A stretch of 64,000 nucleotides of DNA from a virus (Duplodnaviria; Heunggongvirae; Uroviricota; Caudoviricetes), in the IMG/VR virus record IMGVR_UViG_3300011904_000029, positions 70,312 through 134,311 of that record; one strand, written 5' to 3'. Positions 33,421-53,451 of this stretch are shown in pieces. Each line of letters begins with the position of its first letter. Within the stretch, counting starts at the first letter, position 1. The notes beneath the pieces are model-generated. The model did no database searches. It was not told the DNA's origin and saw only the letters and a program-made list of their open reading frames with translations. Made by a program: the position numbers and the translations under genes.

Positions 33421-34101
33421 ATGCCTAAAGAGTGGTATCTATCTGATTCAGATAAATATTTGAGTGGATATGAAAACGAAGAATTTACACTTAATGCCAC
33501 AAGTGCTTTTGATGAAATCCTCCTTAATTCACCAGAGTCTTATGATGTATTAATCAATGATGTCCCAAACAAAGCCATTATACAAACAAAATCTAGCGAT
33601 ATTGCAAGAAAAATTTTAACCAGGATTGGCGACATTTCTTGTGGAGATATTGTTGATTATAAAAAAAATAAATGGCTTGCTGTTGATTTCGCTGACGACA
33701 ATAGAATGTACGAATCAAGCATCATTAAGCTATGCAATACCACATTTCATTTAGAGCTAGATAAAACTACTGTTTTATTAAGAGATGAGAACGGCAATCC
33801 AATACTTGATAATCATGGCAGACCAATCTATGAAGAAGTTCCAAATACTAAAGATGTTCCTTGTGTAGTTGAAACAAAGTATTACTTTAATAACCGCAAT
33901 GAACAAATCACACTACCTGAAGATCGGGTAATGATTTCTATTCAGTATCAAGAGGCAAATAATTTAAAAGAAAATGCCGAGTTCAATCTTTATAATTCTC
34001 GTTTCTCAATTAAGTTCATTGATTATACCAAAGTAGTAAATGACAAGGGAGTTATGATCATCACTGGTGAAAGGGTGATGAATAAAGATGGGAATGTATA
34101 A
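33421..34101 (+). CDS. head-closure/neck protein (YomX-like)
   Basis: Gene order and size. Confidence 0.55.
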   Translation: MPKEWYLSDSDKYLSGYENEEFTLNATSAFDEILLNSPESYDVLINDVPNKAIIQTKSSDIARKILTRIGDISCGDIVDYKKNKWLAVDFADDNRMYESSIIKLCNTTFHLELDKTTVLLRDENGNPILDNHGRPIYEEVPNTKDVPCVVETKYYFNNRNEQITLPEDRVMISIQYQEANNLKENAEFNLYNSRFSIKFIDYTKVVNDKGVMIITGERVMNKDGNV

Positions 34102-38412: not shown

Positions 38413-39441
38413 GTGAGTAAGAAGTTTCAGCGTGTAAAGTATTTTACAAAAGAGAAAAAAGATAAAATTAATCCTGATAATATTAAGCTCTATGATAAAT
38501 ATTTACGATCATCCACTATAAAAAATAAAGATGTGAAAAATACTACATATAAGGTTTATCAAAATTATATGTCTCATTTTTTAGTTTATCTATCAGAAGA
38601 GTGGGATAATGTAGGGCTATATGATGAAGAATTTATGGAAAATGCAGTAGATATTATGGAAGGGTTTATTGGATTTTGCCAAGATGTTTTACACAATAAC
38701 AAAAAAGTAATAAATACTAAAATTAGTACAGTTAGTTCTTTTTATATGTGGAGCTTAAAGCGTGGATTAATAGACAGACATCCGTTTGACAAAAAGCTTG
38801 AAAGAATGAAAGGTGCTAATGATGAAAAAATAAAAGAATCATATTTTCTCACTGAGGATCAGATTAAGGAAATTGAAACAGCCTTACTAGACGAAAAGAG
38901 ATTTGATTTCCAGGATAGGCTTTTATGGAACATAGCTTTAGATTCAGCAAATAGAGTTGGTGCTATAGCTAGATTAACCATTTCCTCTCTTAATTTAGAT
39001 GAGATGGTATTTGAAGATATTAGAGAGAAACGTGGAAAGATTGTAGAAGTTGCCTTTGAAGAAGACACTAGAGAGCTTATTCGGCAATGGCTAGAGATGA
39101 GAAAAGAAATGGATAATTTAGAGGTAGATTCTTTTTTTGTTACCAGATACAGAAATGAGTGGCAGCCAATGTCATATGGAACCCTACAAGCACGTATAAA
39201 GAGAATTGGTCAAGCTATTGGCATTGATGATTTTTACTTTCACACTATAAGAAAAACAAAACTTAACTTACTATATGAACAAACTGGAAATATTGACATG
39301 GTGGCTGAGTGGGCGAATCATGAGTCAATTGAGACTAGTAAACGCCACTACATAAAACCTAAATCGAAAGCTGAGTTAAGACGTGAAATGAGAAAGTTGA
39401 TTAAAGAAAATAAAGAAAAGAATAAAGAAGGTTCACAATAA
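38413..39441 (+). CDS. tyrosine recombinase within the tail module (YomM-like)
   Basis: Catalytic R (SANRVG), H-x-x-R (HTIR), H (ANHES) and Y (RHYI). Confidence 0.85.
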   Translation: MSKKFQRVKYFTKEKKDKINPDNIKLYDKYLRSSTIKNKDVKNTTYKVYQNYMSHFLVYLSEEWDNVGLYDEEFMENAVDIMEGFIGFCQDVLHNNKKVINTKISTVSSFYMWSLKRGLIDRHPFDKKLERMKGANDEKIKESYFLTEDQIKEIETALLDEKRFDFQDRLLWNIALDSANRVGAIARLTISSLNLDEMVFEDIREKRGKIVEVAFEEDTRELIRQWLEMRKEMDNLEVDSFFVTRYRNEWQPMSYGTLQARIKRIGQAIGIDDFYFHTIRKTKLNLLYEQTGNIDMVAEWANHESIETSKRHYIKPKSKAELRREMRKLIKENKEKNKEGSQ

Positions 39442-43959: not shown

Positions 43960-44096
43960 GAAGTGCTCCTCTCAGCACTTCTTTTCTTATTTTCCATCTT
44001 TCTCATCCATACTCGACAAAAATATTATAATTTTCTATCTAATCTCCATTTCCTATTTCTATTGTCGTATAATGGTAGAGTATGGGAGGAGATTAT

Positions 44097-44702
44097 ATGG
44101 AGACTAAAAAAGACTTAGAAATTAAAAGTCTTTCAGAAGATCTAGATTTTTCTTTTGCTAGTTTAGAACAGGTAGTAAAAAAGCCAATAAAAAATAAAGA
44201 TGTTTATTTGAAACAATTAAGATTAAGAAAAGAGTTTATAGACTGGACAAAAGACAAATTTTTGTTGTTAAGAGGTTCCGCTCCAAAACATGTCTATAAG
44301 AGAGATATCTTCTATTGTAAATTAGGCGTGAATGTAGGATCAGAACAAAAATTAAAAAGACCAGTTGTTGTTTTACAGAATAATAGAGGTAATGCTTCTT
44401 CTGAAACTACAATTGTTGCTCCAGTTACTACACACAATAGTTGCGTAATATATGAAGATAAAGGTCTTAAATATTACAAGTTCTTGGACTCTGATGGAAA
44501 AGAAATAATAAAAAAGTTAGATTATTATGAAGTACCGCTTGAATTAGAGCCATTTTCAAAAAAGAATATTACTGGCTATATAAACCTTGCACAGATTAGA
44601 ACGATTAGTAAGAAAAGATTATCAAAAGGCTTTGTTGGAAAAATCACCATTGAAAATGATGAAATCATTAAAGCAGCAGTAATAAAATTACTTTTTGGTT
44701 AA
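44097..44702 (+). CDS. PemK/MazF-family endoribonuclease with an N-terminal extension and no adjacent protein antitoxin
   Basis: LGVNVGSEQ..KRPVVVLQN..GN..S.TTIVAPVT and LAQIRTISKKRL motifs. Confidence 0.85.
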   Translation: METKKDLEIKSLSEDLDFSFASLEQVVKKPIKNKDVYLKQLRLRKEFIDWTKDKFLLLRGSAPKHVYKRDIFYCKLGVNVGSEQKLKRPVVVLQNNRGNASSETTIVAPVTTHNSCVIYEDKGLKYYKFLDSDGKEIIKKLDYYEVPLELEPFSKKNITGYINLAQIRTISKKRLSKGFVGKITIENDEIIKAAVIKLLFG

Positions 44703-45148: not shown

Positions 45149-45178
45149 CATTTGTCTTAGAAAGGGGTGTTAATAAAT

Positions 45179-48100
45179 TTGAGTGATGAATTACAAATAA
45201 GGGTTGTTGGTAGCTTAGACTCTAATGCTACACAACAAAAAATCCAACAACAATTAAATAAAATTAAAGATACAGCTATCGAACTAAAGATTGACAACAA
45301 AGCTTTGTCTATAATAAAAGAATTCAATGATGGATTTAAACAACTTGAAAAAACTGCAAAGAACAGTGGCAAAGTCATTGAAGAAGCAATTATGCCTGAC
45401 GGCACTAAAGTAAAACGAACTTTCTTTGATGGATTAGATAAAGAATTTGCTGAGACAACCACAAAAGCAAAAAACATGGGTAAGACCATGACCGATTCTT
45501 TTGGTAATGCTAAAACTACAGTTGATCAATTAAGAGAAGGATTTAGTAAATTAATAAGAGAAAGCGAAAGGTTTAATGCCTCTCAACAAAAAATATCTGG
45601 AACAATCCAAGCACAAAATGATTTGGGTAATAGAAAGATTAAGATTAGCACAGATCATAATGGTGATGTTAGAGGATATAACGTTACACAGGATCATAAA
45701 AAAGAATTAGATTTAATTGAGCAAATGGCAAGAGCGAGAGAGAAATCTGCTCTCAGAGTTCAAGCTGAAGAAAGGAAATTATTAGAAAATCAACAAAAGC
45801 AGATAGGGATAAATGAGCAGATAACAAGAGAATTAAGAGAGCAATTAGAATTAAAGAAAAGACAAGCGCAAATAAATGTATCGAATTTAGAAAGACGATT
45901 CTCCGGTAACATTCCAAGAGAAACACAAGATTCATTAAATAAATATATAGATAGCTATAAAAATTTAAATGAAATGACTCCAAATGTTCAAAGCAAAATG
46001 AAAAATTTGGATATGACTTATAAAGAACTATCTGAAACAGTAAAGACTGCCGGAAATAAGACAGTTAGTTTTGGTGAACAATTAGCGATAGCTTTTAATC
46101 GTATTCCGATATGGATGGTTGGAATGGGTTCTTTCTACGGCGCAATTACAAAAGTAAAAGACGCTATTTCTCAAATTATAGAAATTGACTCTCAATTAAC
46201 TGTATTAAAAAGGGTTTCTAATGGTCAAATAGATATCAACAATGCTCTAGAAGAAAGCATACGTCTTGCAGAACAGTTAGGGAACCGTATTGCTGACATC
46301 AATGAGGGTATGATTTCGTTTGCGAGACAAGGGTTTCGTGGCGATGAATTAAATATGATGACTGAATATTCGGTATTGATGAGTAATATCAGTGACATGA
46401 GTGTTGATGATTCAGCATCAGCTTTAACTGCGGCCTTAAAGGGCTTTAATATGGAGGCAGAACGTGGGATTCATGTGGTTAACGCTCTCAACGAAGTGGA
46501 TAAATTTTGTCCCTTATGTTAGTAATAGCATAAGCAAACTCCGAATATGCTGGAAAGCCGTCATACAGCTTTTAGTAGTAGTCATTTTTGGAAACTTAAT
46601 TGACATCTAAAAATCTAAAAGACAAGGTGGCAATCAGCAGAGATAGCCCTAAGTCAAGTACATTGATAAGGGAAGCTCTCAGAGACTATCAAGGAGCATC
46701 CTTTGAGGATGATGGTATAGTCCAGTCCCCCTCTTTTGAAAGAGTGTTAAAGTATCCCGAAAGGGAGGGTAAAAACGAACAATTATAGCGTGACTACTCA
46801 ACAGCTTGCTGAATCTATAATGCGATCTGCCGGGGCAGCATCCACATACGGTAAACTTAATGCCGCCTAGTGCAGTAATGCATTAGTGAAAAGTCAGCCA
46901 TATCGGTGGAACTCTGGAGGCAGACAACACCGAGGAAAGACTATTTTACGATTATGGGTAAATTGTATAAGCATGTATTGACTTGGGAGGTCTTTACATG
47001 TTAATTGTTTGTACATATTGTAGCAAGAAATTAAATAAAAAACCATCACAAATCAAAAGAAGTAAAAACCACTTTTGTGATAAAAAGTGTCATAATAAAT
47101 GGATGAGAGGTAAGACTCGCCCCGAAAAACAAAATAAAGTTAAGCATAATTGCCATCAATGTGATAAACCTATGGAAGTTGAGAATTATAAGTATAAACG
47201 ATTTTTAAATGGGGAAATAAAAAATCTATTTTGCAATAAAAATTGTTTAGCAGATTGGCAAAGAGTAAATTTTAAGGGTGAGAAAAGCTCCAAATTTAAC
47301 AGGATAACAAAGAAATGCGGATTTTGTGATGAGGAGTATAGTATTCCTAAAAGCAGAGAAAATACGTCTAAATACTGCTCTAATGAATGTCATTCAAATA
47401 GTAGAATTGAAGATATTGTTGTAGAATGTAATTATTGTGATTCAATGTTTACAAAAAAGAGAGCACAGATAAAGGATCGTAATTTCTGCTCCAAGAGCTG
47501 CTCTTCTAAATGGAATTCTGAAAATAACAACTTACAAGTTGCAAAAGAATGTTTTGCCTGTAATAAAAAATACAAGGTTCATAGAAGCAGAGCTGAATCA
47601 TCAAAGACGTGCTCTAGGGAATGTCATGGTATTTGGTTGAAAGAATACTATTTCAAAACTGAAAAAGGTAAGCAACATTTAATTAATAATGGGGTTAAAT
47701 CTCAATTGACTCAAAAACATTCTGATACCAAGCCTGAAAGAATTATAAAAGAGTTATTGATACATAAGAATATCGAATTTATTCCACAACATCTGATGTA
47801 TGACAAGTTTGTTGTGGATTTTTATTTGCCAAAAGAAAATATAGTAATAGAGGTTTTTGGGGATTACTGGCATGGTAATCCTCTTTTTTATGGCGAATTA
47901 GGAACAATGAAGCCATTAACAGAAAAACAGATTAAGCAGAAAAATAAAGACAAAGCAAGGGAAGCATACTTGAAAAAGTGTGGACATGCGTTTTATATAT
48001 TGTGGGAACATGATATATATAACAATTTAGAAGAAGTAATTGAATTTTTATAACATGCTTATATATTTACCGTAATCGTAAAGTAGAATCCGTAACGACT

Positions 48101-51100
48101 ATGTGTTCATAGTGGTGACATTATGAGCCTACGCTGACCAACCTTTTCTCCCATTATTAAGGTTGAAGATAGAGTCTGAACTACGCCTATAACCTGGAAG
48201 TGAAAGCGTAGAGGTAAGCAGAAATGACTTACCCCTTCTATTTAGTAGAAGAGTAACAAATTGGTTAGTTTGGAAAAAAGTATCGGCTATACAACTGCGA
48301 TAGCTCAAGTTACCCGTGAATCTGGTAAAAAAAATTTGCCCTATATACTAGCAATAGTATATATGCATCCTTTAAATTGCTGGAAACCCCTTAGAGCCTA
48401 TTAAACTACAACGTAACTGGGAACGGTAAGCGTGAATGTTTGAAAATTAATAGGATTGGGCAATCAGCAGCGAAACCTCAATAACGAGGGACGTTCAACG
48501 ACTATAATAAGGACATCCTAATGGGATGAAGGGATAGTCTAGACCCTTTAAAATACTGTGAAAACAGGGGTATTTAACGAGTGTCATAGGTAACAGCTTG
48601 AAATCCATTTATTCTCGTATCACTAGTATTGATGGTGCGGTTGACCTTCTTAATTCAATTGGAATTTCTGTTAAAGAATCTTCTGGAGAAATGCGCAAAG
48701 TAGAAGATATCATTCAAGATTTGAGTTTACAGTGGAGTGGGCTTTCAAAAGAAATGCAGCAGAATCTTGGTCTTCAAATAGCAGGGCGCTATCAACTCAG
48801 CCGTTTTCTAATCCTTATGAACCAATATGATGAGGTCTTAGCTTCTACTGAAGCTGCTACCAACTCAGCCGGATCAGCATATAGGGAAAACGCTGAATAT
48901 TTAAAATCGTATGAGGCTAGGTTAAACACAGTAAGAAACGAATTTACTCAGGCTGCAATTGCAATGCAGAAGTCTTTTGTTGGCGATGGCATAATTGCAT
49001 TTGTGGAAGTTGGTACTACTTTCTTACAAACTTTAACCAACATCATAAATAAAGTTGGTCTACTTCCATCTGCCTTTGGACTTGCAACAGCAGCTACAAT
49101 GCTTCTTAATCGTAGTTTCAGAGAAACTGCTATGATTAATGGTATGTATTTTCTTGACTTCTTAAAAAATCTTCCTCAAAACTTAAATAAAGCTACAATT
49201 GCCACTGGCGCTATGACAGCAGCAACAAATACCCAGGCTGTAGCTATGAATGTTGCAACTGTTGCAGGAAGAGGATTGGGAACAACAATGACATTTTTAG
49301 CGGGCATAGCTCTACCTGTCGCTGCATTCATGGCTTTGGGTACTGCAATATCCTTTGCTACCAGTAAAATTATAGAACATAGACAAGAACAGAAAGATCT
49401 TAAAGAAAAGTTTGAAGAAGATACAAAAAAGAATATAGACGCAATCACGAACAACAAAGAGCAGGTAGACGAATTAATTTCATCATATAAAGATTTATCA
49501 TCTGCGGCCAATGAAAGAAACTTAAATGTTGATGAAGAACAAGAGTATCTTTCTATTCAACAAGAATTAGCTGAATTGTTTCCTGGATTAGTGAAAGAGA
49601 TAGACAGTAAGGGGCAAGCTCATATAAAGTCTGCTGAAGGAATAGATCAGGAAGTCGAAGCAACAGAGAGGTTACTGTCCCTTGAAAGAGAACGAATAAT
49701 TAACGAAGCAGAAGATAATTATTCAAAAAGAATTGATTCTCTAAAAGATTATAAGAATGAAATTGATGAACTTGAAAGAAGATTGGAATCACTCTCAGAA
49801 TCAGAAGAGAAAAACAAGACTCTATGGAAAGATGATCAGATAGCAGAGAATCATAAAAAACTGCGAAATGAATTAGAAAGAGAATTGATATATCAGCAAA
49901 CTCTTTATGCAAATGCTGCTCAGGGGATTTCATCAGAAGTTGAAAATGTGTTTAGCGCTACTGTCAATTCTATGTCTGGGTTTACTCCTCAATTAGAAAG
50001 TGCAATTAATACAATTTTTTCATCTATTGATTTTTCTAGCCAAAAATCTGCTGAAGAAATAAGTAATATTGAAAAACAGATGGCATCATTTGCAAAAGAA
50101 TTAAATGATGCGTTTAAAGCAGAAGATAGAACAAAATTTAGTCAGATTGCTGATGAATTAAAGGAATTTTTAAGTGCTCAAGGTATGAGTGAGTCTGCTT
50201 TAAACGGATTGAATATATCTTATAATGATTTAAAAACAGCAGTTGAGAACTACAAGGACGCAAAAGAAGAGGCAAATAAAATTGATGAAGAAGGAATAGA
50301 AAACACTGAAGCTCAAATGGAAGAAAACGCTGAACTTAAAAAGAGCTACGATGATGCAATTGCCAACATAAAATCACTAAACGAAGTAGTTAATGAATTA
50401 AATGAAGGTCATGGTTTATCTGCTGATAAAATCGGCTTTTTAATGGAAAATTATGAACATCTTCTTCCATATCTTAATAATGAAACAAAACTGCGTCAAA
50501 AAATTCAAGAAGAATTACTCAAAGAAGAAAGAATTGCTAAAAATGTAATGCTCAATAAGCTCTCATATAATGAGCAATTTTATAGGAATACTATTAATGC
50601 AAATAATGCCTATGTTAAATCAATGCATAGTAAATATGGAATTGATCTAAAATCATTTAAAAATCTAGCTGAAGCTAAAGCAGCAGTAGAAGGAAAATTA
50701 CTAAACACTCTTTCTGCAAGCTGGAATTCTTATTACAGTTCAGTAGCTCATGCTTTAGCATCTATTCGAGCAGCAACAGGTGGAATATTTGGTGCAGTAG
50801 TTGGCGGAGCAATGCAAGCTTATTCATTTGCTCAAGACTATACGTCATTTATGAAACCGTTGGTAGATTTCAATAACATTTTCCTTGATCAAATTGGAGA
50901 TCTCACAGACGGAGCAATTGCTAAGAATGGATTATCCGATGCCACTAAAAAGGGAACAAAAGCTCAAAAAGACGCCAATAAAGAATATGAACATTCTATT
51001 TATGTATCCGATAAATTCAAGCAAGCTTTAGAAAAACTAAATCTTCAATTAGAAAAACAAAAAGCATTACAAGAGTCTCTTCCTAAGCATTCTAAGAAAT

Positions 51101-53451
51101 ATCGTGATGCCCTACAAAAAGAAATTAATTTACTAAAAGAGAAAAATAAATTAATTAAGGATGAACAAAAATCCATAGAAAAGCAAATCAAATCAGGGAA
51201 AATTCAACAAAAAGGGATTGTTCAAGTTCCTTCTTCTGGGGTAACTCCAGTATCAACTAAATCAACCAAAGTATCTGGCTACTCAGGTAAGTATGCAAAA
51301 GAAATCAGTGCTGCTTCTAAGAAATATGGTGTAGACCCTTATTTAATTGCAGCCATCATAAAACAAGAATCTAACTTTAATCCAAATGCTCGTTCACATG
51401 TAGGCGCACAAGGGTTAATGCAATTAATGCCAGCTACAGCTCGTGGTCTAGGTGTTAAAAATGCTTATAATCCTGCTGAAAATATTATGGGTGGAACAAA
51501 ATATATAGCGCAACAATTGAAAGCATTTGGTGGAGATTTACAAAAAGCGTTAGCTGCTTATAATGCTGGCCCAGGCAATGTTAGAAAATATGGTGGAATC
51601 CCTCCATTTAGGGAAACTCAAAATTATGTTAAAAAGATAGTAAGTGACTATAATTCAAAGATAGCCAAGTCTACATCTACTGTTGTTAAAACAGCTACTC
51701 AGACTGCTTCACAGAATGTTGCAAGTTATTACTTAAACAACTTCCGTCAGACTTCTAAATTTGGCGATACAGCAGGACGTTCATCAGCACATAAAGGTTT
51801 AGACTTTGCTAATGGTAGACAAGGTGATCCAGTTAAGGCTTTGCGTGGTGGTAAGGTAATAACAGCCACATACAGCAATTCTGCCGGATATTGGGTTGTC
51901 GTCCAACAAGACGATGGCACTGTTGCAAAATATATGCACATGCAGAAAGGTCTTAATGTTAAAGCAGGACAAACTATTAAGGCTGGACAACAACTAGGTA
52001 AAGTTGGCAACACTGGACATTCAACTGGTGCACACTTGCATTTGCAAATTGAACAAGGTGGAAAAGCAATTGACCCACTTCCATATATGAAAGAATTGCA
52101 ATCAAAACAGTCTAAAGAGGTTGCTCAACAAGCTAAAGATGTGGATGATGCTAGGTCAACATTGAATCAGTTGGAACAGGACTCCTTAGAAATAGAAAAA
52201 CAACTCCGGCAGTTATACATGGATATAATTGAGAGTCAATTGGCAGAATTCGATAGAATTAAAGAGTCTTATGAAGATGACTTAGCTAAGATTGATCTAA
52301 TACAAAAACGTGAAGTATCCACTTCTAAACAATGGTTAAATCAACAAGCCAAAAAAGAAGAAATACTAAAAAAGCAAATTGATCAAGAAAAGAAAGCAAT
52401 TAAGTTTATTGATCAACAAATTAAAGCTAATAAAAATCTAAACAAGGCACAAAAAGCACTTCTTGAAGACCAGTTAACTGATAGATATAAGACATTATCT
52501 TCTTTAGAAAGCAATCTTCTTGATGAGCGTATATCAATGGCAGAGACCATTATTGATACATACAAAAAGGGATTGGAAGCTCAAAAGAAAGCTGCTATTG
52601 ATGCAATTGATGAAATAATTAAAGGAATAAACAAGTCTGCTGACGATGAATCCTACAAAAAGAAACTAGAAAAAGCTCAAAAAGACCGACAAGAAATCCT
52701 AGATGAAATTGCAAGCCTTTCTTTAGATGATTCTGATGCAGCAAAGAAAAGAATATCAGAGCTTCAAAAACAACTCCAGGAACAAGAAGAGTCTTTGTTC
52801 GAGATGCAAGAAGATAGAGCAAGAGAAGAACGAATTGCAAATCTAGAAGAGCAGAAAGAAGAAATTGAAAATAAATATGATGATCTTCTAAATGATGAGC
52901 GTAAATTTAATAAAATGCGTTCAGATATTATCAATTCAAATACTAAGCAAATTCGAAAAGACTTAGACAAGTTTTATGCAGATATTAAAAAGAATACTAA
53001 AATTTTAGGGAAATCTATTTCTAATAATCTAATTGATTTAATAAACCAAGCAAACTCTTATATGGGGAATAAAAAGAATAAGCCGATAAAGATTGCTCAA
53101 GCCAAAACAGGTGGACTATTGCCATCTTGGGGGCCTGAAGGGAAAGCCATGATTGTTCATGAAGATGAGATGATCTTGAGTAAACCTGATACATCTAATT
53201 TCCTAGAAGCAATGAAGGTGTCTGAAGATGTAGTTAGCAGTATTCCTAAGAATCTATTTAGTAACCTTCCTAAGCTACCTAAGATTCCACAAATACAAGC
53301 TCCGGTCATTGGCGGAGAACAGAGCAGTACGACAATTAACTATGGTGGCATCACTTTAAGAGTTGATAATTTGAACGGTAATAAAAATGATGCAGAATTT
53401 CTTTTACAAGAGTTTGTCAATGGAATTAAAGCAAAAGGTGGACGAATATAA
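45179..53451 (+). CDS. tape measure protein with lytic transglycosylase and M23 peptidase domains (SPbeta YomI/CwlP-like), spliced: join(45179..46501,46778..46852,48264..48326,48580..53451), 2110 aa
   Basis: The spliced junction reads NEVD|[25 protein letters not shown]|[21 protein letters not shown]|[13 protein letters not shown], a continuous TP901-type TMP motif; SLT motif QESNFN...GLMQLM; M23 motifs HKGLD and HLH. Confidence 0.9.
46502..46777 (+). mobile_element. group I intron 1 (276 nt, no ORF)
   Basis: 5' exon ends in U and intron ends in G; P1 GGAU/GUCC; tgctggaaa (46548), aatcagcag (46632); P7 gactat/atagtc (46684/46717). Confidence 0.9.
46853..48263 (+). mobile_element. group I intron 2 (1411 nt) carrying a homing endonuclease ORF
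   Basis: 5' exon ends in U and intron ends in G; P1 CGGU/GCCG; atcggtg/caccga pairing (46902/46928); taacgactat (48093) and agagtc (48171); ORF lies between these core elements. Confidence 0.9.
46998..48053 (+). CDS. intron-encoded endonuclease: five CxxC...CxxxC zinc-finger repeats plus a Vsr-like (EDxHD/DUF559-type) nuclease domain
   Basis: TKPERII...FVVDFYLP...[12 protein letters not shown]; GGAGG RBS before the ATG at 46998. Confidence 0.85.
   Translation: MLIVCTYCSKKLNKKPSQIKRSKNHFCDKKCHNKWMRGKTRPEKQNKVKHNCHQCDKPMEVENYKYKRFLNGEIKNLFCNKNCLADWQRVNFKGEKSSKFNRITKKCGFCDEEYSIPKSRENTSKYCSNECHSNSRIEDIVVECNYCDSMFTKKRAQIKDRNFCSKSCSSKWNSENNNLQVAKECFACNKKYKVHRSRAESSKTCSRECHGIWLKEYYFKTEKGKQHLINNGVKSQLTQKHSDTKPERIIKELLIHKNIEFIPQHLMYDKFVVDFYLPKENIVIEVFGDYWHGNPLFYGELGTMKPLTEKQIKQKNKDKAREAYLKKCGHAFYILWEHDIYNNLEEVIEFL
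48327..48579 (+). mobile_element. group I intron 3 (253 nt, no ORF)
   Basis: 5' exon ends in U and intron ends in G; P1 GGU/GCC; attgctggaaa (48376), aatcagcag (48462); P7 gactat/atagtc (48500/48534). Confidence 0.9.

Follow-up and report, generated by a model that had tools for sequence, protein, structure and literature searches.

Three predicted group I introns separated by mini-exons in the tape measure gene of an IMG/VR provirus

Introduction

Group I introns in phage tape measure genes have been described from prophages of the Bacillus cereus group, where TMP-IVS1, IVS2, and IVS3a/b occupy three sites (Tourasse and Kolsto 2008, PMC2504315). That report also lists a tape measure intron in Lactobacillus delbrueckii phage JCL1032, and it describes related TMP-IVS introns that adapted their P1 helix to different sites, different introns found at one and the same site, and a majority of introns without an endonuclease gene alongside a few with one. 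The present analysis concerns the tape measure gene of a 137-kb provirus in the IMG/VR database (record IMGVR_UViG_3300011904_000029; completeness 96% according to CheckV), within a stretch of 64,000 nucleotides (nt; bases 70312-134311 of the record) that is referred to below as the window. Three group I introns very probably interrupt this gene, and production of its protein would require three splicing events, as predicted from sequence. The gene shares with those of the B. cereus group the kind of element, the kind of gene, the setting in a Bacillales prophage, and the presence of several sites per gene. However, that report gives the B. cereus-group genes at most two introns, at sites toward separate ends of the gene, whereas the window has three within 138 nt of coding sequence and its relatives have up to four; likewise, the endonucleases of the B. 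cereus-group tape measure introns belong to the GIY-YIG or HNH families, whereas the one in the window is Vsr-like. The published TMP-IVS3b (pBWB404) was sought by tblastn in a plasmid collection and was not found there.

A second comparison is provided by orf142, the tail tube gene of Staphylococcus phage Twort, in which Landthaler and Shub (1999, as cited in PMC10136302 and PMC11878797) reported three group I introns, some of the transcripts skipping an internal exon of 23 nt. As in the window, a single structural gene of a phage contains three group I introns separated by very short exons; unlike in the window, where the exons measure 75 and 63 nt and splicing is predicted, the gene is a different one, the phage belongs to another family, and the exon is 23 nt long. 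Since the introns of orf142 splice, stacked group I introns can all splice. In the Bastillevirinae, DNA polymerase, terminase, and nucleotide-metabolism genes contain two or three RNA-validated group I introns (PMC11878797). These genes resemble the window in having several introns in one essential phage gene and in the detection of the introns with covariance models; the introns of the window differ in that they are located in a virion structural gene. The first-pass annotation of the window, made from the letters alone, described both tape measure introns and closely spaced triples as rare. The former statement is overstated, given the three sites in B. cereus-group prophages and the interruption of about half of the tape measure genes sampled here, and the latter is too strong, as Twort orf142 was already known and relatives of the window contain up to four introns.

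Exons and the restored reading frame

The features of the locus are listed below in window coordinates. P0003 denotes an uninterrupted 2089-residue "phage tail tape measure protein" of Siminovitchia fordii, found with the exon 4 product as query, and RF00028 is the Rfam group I intron model (Intron_gpI), which has a gathering score of 50 bits.

45179..46501, + strand: exon 1; 441 codons from TTG 45179, ending in NEVD; PhageMin_Tail profile positions 3-85
46502..46777, + strand: predicted group I intron 1; 276 nt, without an open reading frame (ORF); RF00028 match at 46492-46746, 64.2 bits, E 2.6e-15
46778..46852, + strand: mini-exon 2; 75 nt, 25 codons, identical to the corresponding stretch of P0003
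46853..48263, + strand: predicted group I intron 2; 1411 nt, with an endonuclease ORF in the P6a loop; based on comparative fold and junction alignment
46998..48053, + strand: predicted homing endonuclease ORF within intron 2; 351 residues from ATG 46998, with GGGAGG 7 nt upstream
48264..48326, + strand: mini-exon 3; 63 nt, 21 codons, identical to the corresponding stretch of P0003
48327..48579, + strand: predicted group I intron 3; 253 nt, without an ORF; RF00028 match at 48317-48562, 71.7 bits
48580..53451, + strand: exon 4; 1623 codons plus stop; remainder of the PhageMin_Tail motif, with SLT lytic transglycosylase and M23 peptidase domains (Pfam)

Because each insert contains an in-frame stop (7, 6, and 26 codons into introns 1, 2, and 3, respectively), the full protein requires the removal of all three. 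When 45167-46501, 46778-46852, 48264-48326, and 48580-53451 are joined, the result is a frame of 2114 codons that opens at GTG 45167 and meets no stop before its end, the lengths of both mini-exons being divisible by three. The likely product has 2110 residues, as TTG 45179, preceded by GAAAGGGG, aligns with Met1 of P0003. The spliced product and P0003 are identical at 1835 of 2110 positions (87%); no gap occurs in the alignment of residues 425-544, which include all three junctions, and the two sequences are identical throughout the stretch spanning the junctions. The introns follow codons D445, G470, and G491 (numbered from GTG 45167) and fall where the TP901-type PhageMin_Tail motif is most conserved. 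The Pfam profile of this motif (PF10145) is divided between exon 1 (positions 3-85, 38.1 bits against a cut-off of 33.2) and exon 4 (positions 132-201, 28.6 bits), and the 46 profile positions missing between the two correspond to the 25 plus 21 residues of the mini-exons. With PhageMin_Tail above its cut-off in a long protein encoded in a tail module, the gene has the features of a TP901-type tape measure gene.

A spliced protein-to-DNA alignment on the window returned exons ending at 46501, at 46778-46852, at 48264-48326, and starting at 48580, the same set as the joined frame. The aligner admitted only introns that lie between codons, are preceded by T, and end in G; it misplaced introns lying within codons (in the related loci L034, L040, L035, and L038 of the survey below), the sites of which were set by hand, and the "introns" that it proposed past residue 640 were ignored as artefacts of a low-complexity coiled-coil region. 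The junction of intron 2 is unique; introns 1 and 3 allow two or three equivalent cuts, of which the U...G rule selects one. The independently aligned exons agree with the first-pass annotation, which had placed introns at 46502-46777, 46853-48263, and 48327-48579, and the gap-free junctions against P0003 bear out its claim that their removal restores a conserved motif and a protein of 2110 residues.

Introns 1 and 3

Introns 1 and 3 both pass the RF00028 gathering score, the match of intron 3 having an E-value of 3.2e-16 for the whole window, and the P3-P9 core, with its pseudoknot order of P7, P3', P8, and P7', is present in both Rfam alignments. In intron 1, P1 is formed by GGAU/GUCC, the P2 loop is GUAA, the terminal G is at 46777, and the in-frame stop is at 46520-46522. 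In intron 3, the GGU/GCC pairing of P1 continues into the intron, P2 is capped by GCAA, the terminal G is at 48579, and the in-frame stop is at 48402-48404. When intron 2 is included, the 5' exons end in GGAU, CGGU, and UGGU and face the guides GUCC, GCCG, and GCC, placing a U-G pair at every splice site. The U-G pair in P1, the GNRA-capped P2, and the terminal G that had been claimed for each intron can thus be read directly in the sequence, and the claimed P4/P7 core appears in the Rfam alignments of introns 1 and 3 and in the comparative fold of intron 2. The expectation that a group I model would recognize the introns holds for introns 1 and 3 (64.2 and 71.7 bits) and fails for intron 2, which scores 16.2 bits against the cut-off of 50.

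Intron 2 and its predicted endonuclease

The RF00028 match of intron 2 is weak and partial, covering the 3' part of the intron (47992-48197; 16.2 bits, E 0.63), because the 1.07-kb ORF breaks the model. An Rfam search with intron 2 by itself gave nothing useful, and a blastn search of the phage collection with the 3' half of the intron found nothing. The fold was instead derived by comparison, with the ORF removed and the window aligned with L034, L039, and L040, using RNAalifold and a manual assignment of P7. The helices obtained are P1, P2, P3, P4, P5, P6, P6a, P7, an extra hairpin, P8, P9, P9.1, and P9.2, including P1 CGGU/GCCG, P3 GUCAGC/GCUGAC, and P7 GACU/AGUC, with a GUAA loop on P2 and a terminal G at 48263. 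Across the four homologs the fold comprises 92 pairs, 27 of which are changed on both sides, and 96% of the cells are standard pairs. The extra hairpin, located between P7 and P3', where subgroup IA introns of the P7.1/P7.2 type have an additional pairing, has 8 bp, a GUGA cap, and two compensatory pairs. The R-like (GUAACGACUAU) and S-like (AAGAUAGAGUCU) core elements of intron 2 resemble those of intron 3.

At the same site, a metagenomic phage contig contains a natural homolog without an ORF (L126:1139-1452, 314 nt), which matches RF00028 with 31.5 bits (E 1.9e-6). Its helices are assigned as in intron 2, with the extra hairpin represented by a 28-nt insertion in the Rfam alignment. Intron 2 is also found at the same site (the G470 equivalent) in the Paenibacillus prophages L034, L039, and L040 and in the IMG/VR provirus L127, with ribozyme parts that are ~70% identical. 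The td intron of phage T4, which harbors I-TevI and belongs to subgroup IA2, has its ORF in the P6a loop, a hairpin between P7 and P3', and P9.1/P9.2 extensions. Intron 2 shares the position of the ORF, the extra P7-P3' hairpin, P9.1, and P9.2, and differs in its host gene and in having a Vsr-like rather than a GIY-YIG endonuclease. On the strength of the fold, the core elements, and the homolog without an ORF, intron 2 is accepted as a putative group I intron that is laid out like T4 td and may be of the subgroup IA type, despite its failure to reach the Rfam cut-off.

The endonuclease is encoded in an open frame of 356 codons (46983-48053) and combines N-terminal Cys-rich, zinc-finger-like repeats with a C-terminal Vsr-like nuclease domain. 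In Pfam it matches DUF559 (24.8 bits, cut-off 20.6) and, below the cut-off of 27, Vsr (18.4 bits). Residues 248-298 show weak similarity (E 0.0066) to PDB 3R3P, the "mobile intron protein" I-Bth0305I. ORFs 44-47% identical to the endonuclease occur in the same-site introns of L034, L039, L040, and L127, and the motif FVVDFYL...IEVxGDYWH of the catalytic region is kept in four homologs. Related endonuclease ORFs are also present in introns at another site of the gene (site S4 below) in L032 and L036, and the intron at that site in L002 bears a LAGLIDADG gene instead. The intron 2 product is therefore classed as a predicted Vsr-like/EDxHD homing endonuclease of the I-Bth0305I type. Like I-Bth0305I of Bacillus thuringiensis phage 0305phi8-36, it has a Vsr fold and is located inside a group I intron in a Bacillus-type phage; unlike I-Bth0305I, it has a long N-terminal Cys-rich repeat region and another target gene, the similarity between the two is weak, and the enzyme is a predicted one.

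An intron-insertion hotspot in related tape measure genes

Related tape measure genes were surveyed in species-representative genomes (36 loci, labelled L001 and so on, over residues 301-640 of the spliced protein). About 17 of the 36 loci are interrupted within the domain, with at least eight intron sites inside 57 codons and further sites elsewhere in the domain. The sites are listed below in spliced-protein numbering, a slash marking a position between two codons.

S0, 439/440: L027, L029
S1a, inside codon 444: L034, L040, L126, L127
S1, 445/446: intron 1 of the window, Geobacillus virus E3, L067
S1b, inside codon 450: L035, L038
S2, 470/471: intron 2 of the window, L031, L034, L039, L040, L126, L127
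S3, 491/492: intron 3 of the window, L038
S4, 495/496: L001, L002 (= L021), L003, L032, L034, L035, L036, L037, L040, L126, L127
near S5, 555/556: L013, L025
S5, 560/561: L012, L038, L040, L126

Three introns are present in each of L034, L038, and L127, and four (at S1a, S2, S4, and S5) in each of L040:3215-5891 (Paenibacillus sp. Marseille-Q4541) and L126:778-3412 (an IMG/VR contig). The closest relatives of the window (L001, L002, and L003) are without introns 1-3 and contain another intron four codons past site S3 (VIG/NSL), measuring 236-241 nt in L001:3749-3984 and L003:5763-6003 and 941 nt, with the LAGLIDADG gene, in L002:5078-6018. Four of the surveyed inserts pass the Rfam gathering score, and sequence similarity ties further ones to the introns of the window or to one another. 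Even at E 10, RF00028 did not match the site S4 intron of L001 or that of L034; read directly, site S4 introns contain P1, P3, P7, and P8 with compensatory changes. RF00028 therefore misses some of these introns, and a missing match is no evidence against an intron. Dozens of "TMP" proteins in the databases start exactly at residues 446, 471-473, or 496 of the spliced protein; these are downstream fragments called by gene finders. Taken together, the recurrence of interruptions at these sites strongly supports the suggestion of the first-pass annotation that the motif is an intron-insertion hotspot.

Two further phages contain inserts or matches in the same gene. In Geobacillus virus E3 (L004, NC_029073), gp042 and gp043 are annotated as the "N-terminal" and "C-terminal" parts of the tape measure protein and are separated by a 304-nt insert (record positions 33538-33841) exactly at the site of intron 1. 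This insert has the same P1 as intron 1 (GGAU/GUCC) and a similar 3' end, and the annotation includes no intron. A megablast search of phage genomes with the whole region matched the conserved core of intron 3 only. Positions 96186-96281 of the 949-group Lactococcus phage AM12 (KY554776) are 79% identical to that core and fall within the annotated tape measure gene, at a distance of ~7 kb from the motif, which suggests an unannotated intron at another tape measure site.

Probable mobility and matching of exons to guides

Cytobacillus gottheilii (L038) has an intron at the same site that shares 86% identity with intron 3, while the identity of the exons on either side is 60-64%, a contrast that indicates horizontal movement. 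A complementary comparison is offered by the close relative L001, which is without introns 1-3 and has the site S4 intron. The proteins encoded in the window and in L001 hardly differ over residues 446-495, and the synonymous differences (window 48264-48600 versus L001:3700-4020) cluster at residues 485-494, around sites S3 and S4. At both sites the exon fits only the guide of its own allele (UCUGGU in the window versus AGUGGG in L001 at S3, and AUAGGU versus AUCGGU at S4). This synonymous pattern is what would be expected from co-conversion or from co-evolution of exon and guide, and it is not proof of either. A search of nine genomes of the genus did not turn up the DNA of the intronless P0003 allele, and the homing site was compared with the intronless allele at the protein level only.

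Proposed mechanism and alternative explanations

The proposal that the protein depends on three splicing events, made in the first-pass annotation, fits the model matches, the comparative fold, and the restored frame. The tape measure gene would be transcribed as one pre-mRNA, in which the guide of each ribozyme would pair with the last bases of the upstream exon (with U-G at the cleavage site), and free guanosine would attack and the exons would be ligated, once per ribozyme. All three reactions would be needed because of the early in-frame stops in the introns. Intron 2 would be the mobile unit, with its Vsr-like (I-Bth0305I/EDxHD-type) endonuclease cutting intronless alleles and repair copying the intron in. 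Introns 1 and 3, which contain no ORF and are 75 and 63 nt away, most likely persist and spread by co-conversion with intron 2, or may be relics of homing of their own. Two causes are proposed for the hotspot: the motif may be the most conserved DNA stretch of a widely shared gene, and several neighboring sites end in the same Gly codon, GGU, which could pair with the guide GCC(G).

Several points weigh against this interpretation. The 3' part of intron 2 scores 16.2 bits and stays below the Rfam threshold, as does its homolog without an ORF (31.5 bits, under the 50-bit cut-off). The P7 helix of intron 2 requires a 2-nt bulge, and P1, P3, and P7 are invariant in the four homologs, so that covariation is uninformative for these helices. 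Additionally, the co-conversion and GGU accounts of the hotspot are inferences, and splicing itself is inferred from the DNA.

A more dynamic arrangement is conceivable, if doubtful. Related ribozymes might hop between codons ending in GGU, because one guide (GCC/GCCG) fits several sites; introns without an ORF might ride the co-conversion tract of intron 2; and a mini-exon might sometimes be skipped in frame, which would tune tail assembly or sabotage co-infecting rivals at the RNA level. Skipping can also be considered by itself: all introns may splice, with one mini-exon (63 or 75 nt) dropped in frame to give tape measure variants in the manner of Twort orf142, because ...GGU pairs with the guide of intron 2 as well as with that of intron 3. 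The 5' exons of these introns end in CGGU and UGGU, opposite GCCG and GCC, both mini-exons are multiples of three, and skipping is documented for the 23-nt exon of Twort orf142 and for a Bastillevirinae polymerase gene (PMC10136302, PMC11878797). However, the residues that would be lost occupy nearly invariant columns of the motif, such that a skipped product is unlikely to work, and introns 2 and 3 are of different structural types. Variants of this kind are thus rather unlikely.

It is very unlikely, though formally possible since the record is classed as a provirus, that the gene is decaying, in which case at least one intron would no longer splice, the tape measure gene would be a pseudogene, and the whole arrangement would be a relic. 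The absence of an endonuclease from introns 1 and 3 is compatible with decay, as is the possibility that ribosomes translate the first 25 codons of intron 3 before stopping (ORF 48261-48404) and so perhaps disturb its folding. However, the exons are intact across 2110 codons and identical to the intronless homolog around all junctions, all core helices of the three introns are intact, and the endonuclease ORF is intact with its Vsr-type motifs conserved. The provirus is also 96% complete, and relatives retain similar multi-intron genes with open exons. Lastly, inteins, translational bypass, or separate genes can practically be dismissed: databases do treat the pieces as separate genes (e.g., gp042 and gp043 of Geobacillus virus E3), but stops 6-26 codons into each insert exclude inteins, two inserts pass the covariance model for group I introns, the mini-exons are without a start codon or ribosome site of their own, and the Pfam domain is cut in mid-profile.

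Significance of three introns in one structural gene

The element, the host gene, and phage genes with multiple introns were all known previously, and no new kind of element is described here. Two points are new: the dense packing, with three introns of two structural types in 138 nt of coding sequence, and the extent of the hotspot, which offers at least eight sites in 57 codons and holds up to four introns per gene. The locus also has consequences for annotation, as gene finders report the 2110-residue protein as fragments of 451 and 1617 residues, and the same error is widespread among the dozens of database "tape measure proteins" that start at an intron site. As the survey also shows, the role of a major sink for introns in phages of the Bacillales is not confined to DNA-metabolism genes and can fall to a virion structural gene. 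With three tandem ribozymes of two structural types and exons of 75 and 63 nt between them, the locus represents a compact natural system that could be used for studying the order of splicing, exon skipping, and the co-conversion of introns without an ORF beside one that bears an endonuclease.

Genome context

The provirus is SPbeta-like, and the locus is assigned to its tail module because of the neighboring genes: the tape measure gene is followed by a distal tail protein gene and by one for a YomG-like tail endopeptidase. In its domain content the predicted tape measure protein resembles YomI/CwlP (genes yomI/cwlP), with SLT and M23 domains of the CwlP type. Outside the window, the record contains a weak RF00028 match (G000:C1:14252-14361, - strand, 24.3 bits, E 2.5e-5). 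A gene for a PemK/MazF-like toxin (window 44082-44702; Pfam, 64.6 bits) is situated shortly before the tape measure gene and is placed likewise in the relatives L001 and L002. A tyrosine recombinase gene is located within the tail gene module (window 38413-39441; Phage_integrase, 81 bits), and in the relatives L002 and L003 a tyrosine recombinase gene is also found upstream of the tape measure gene.

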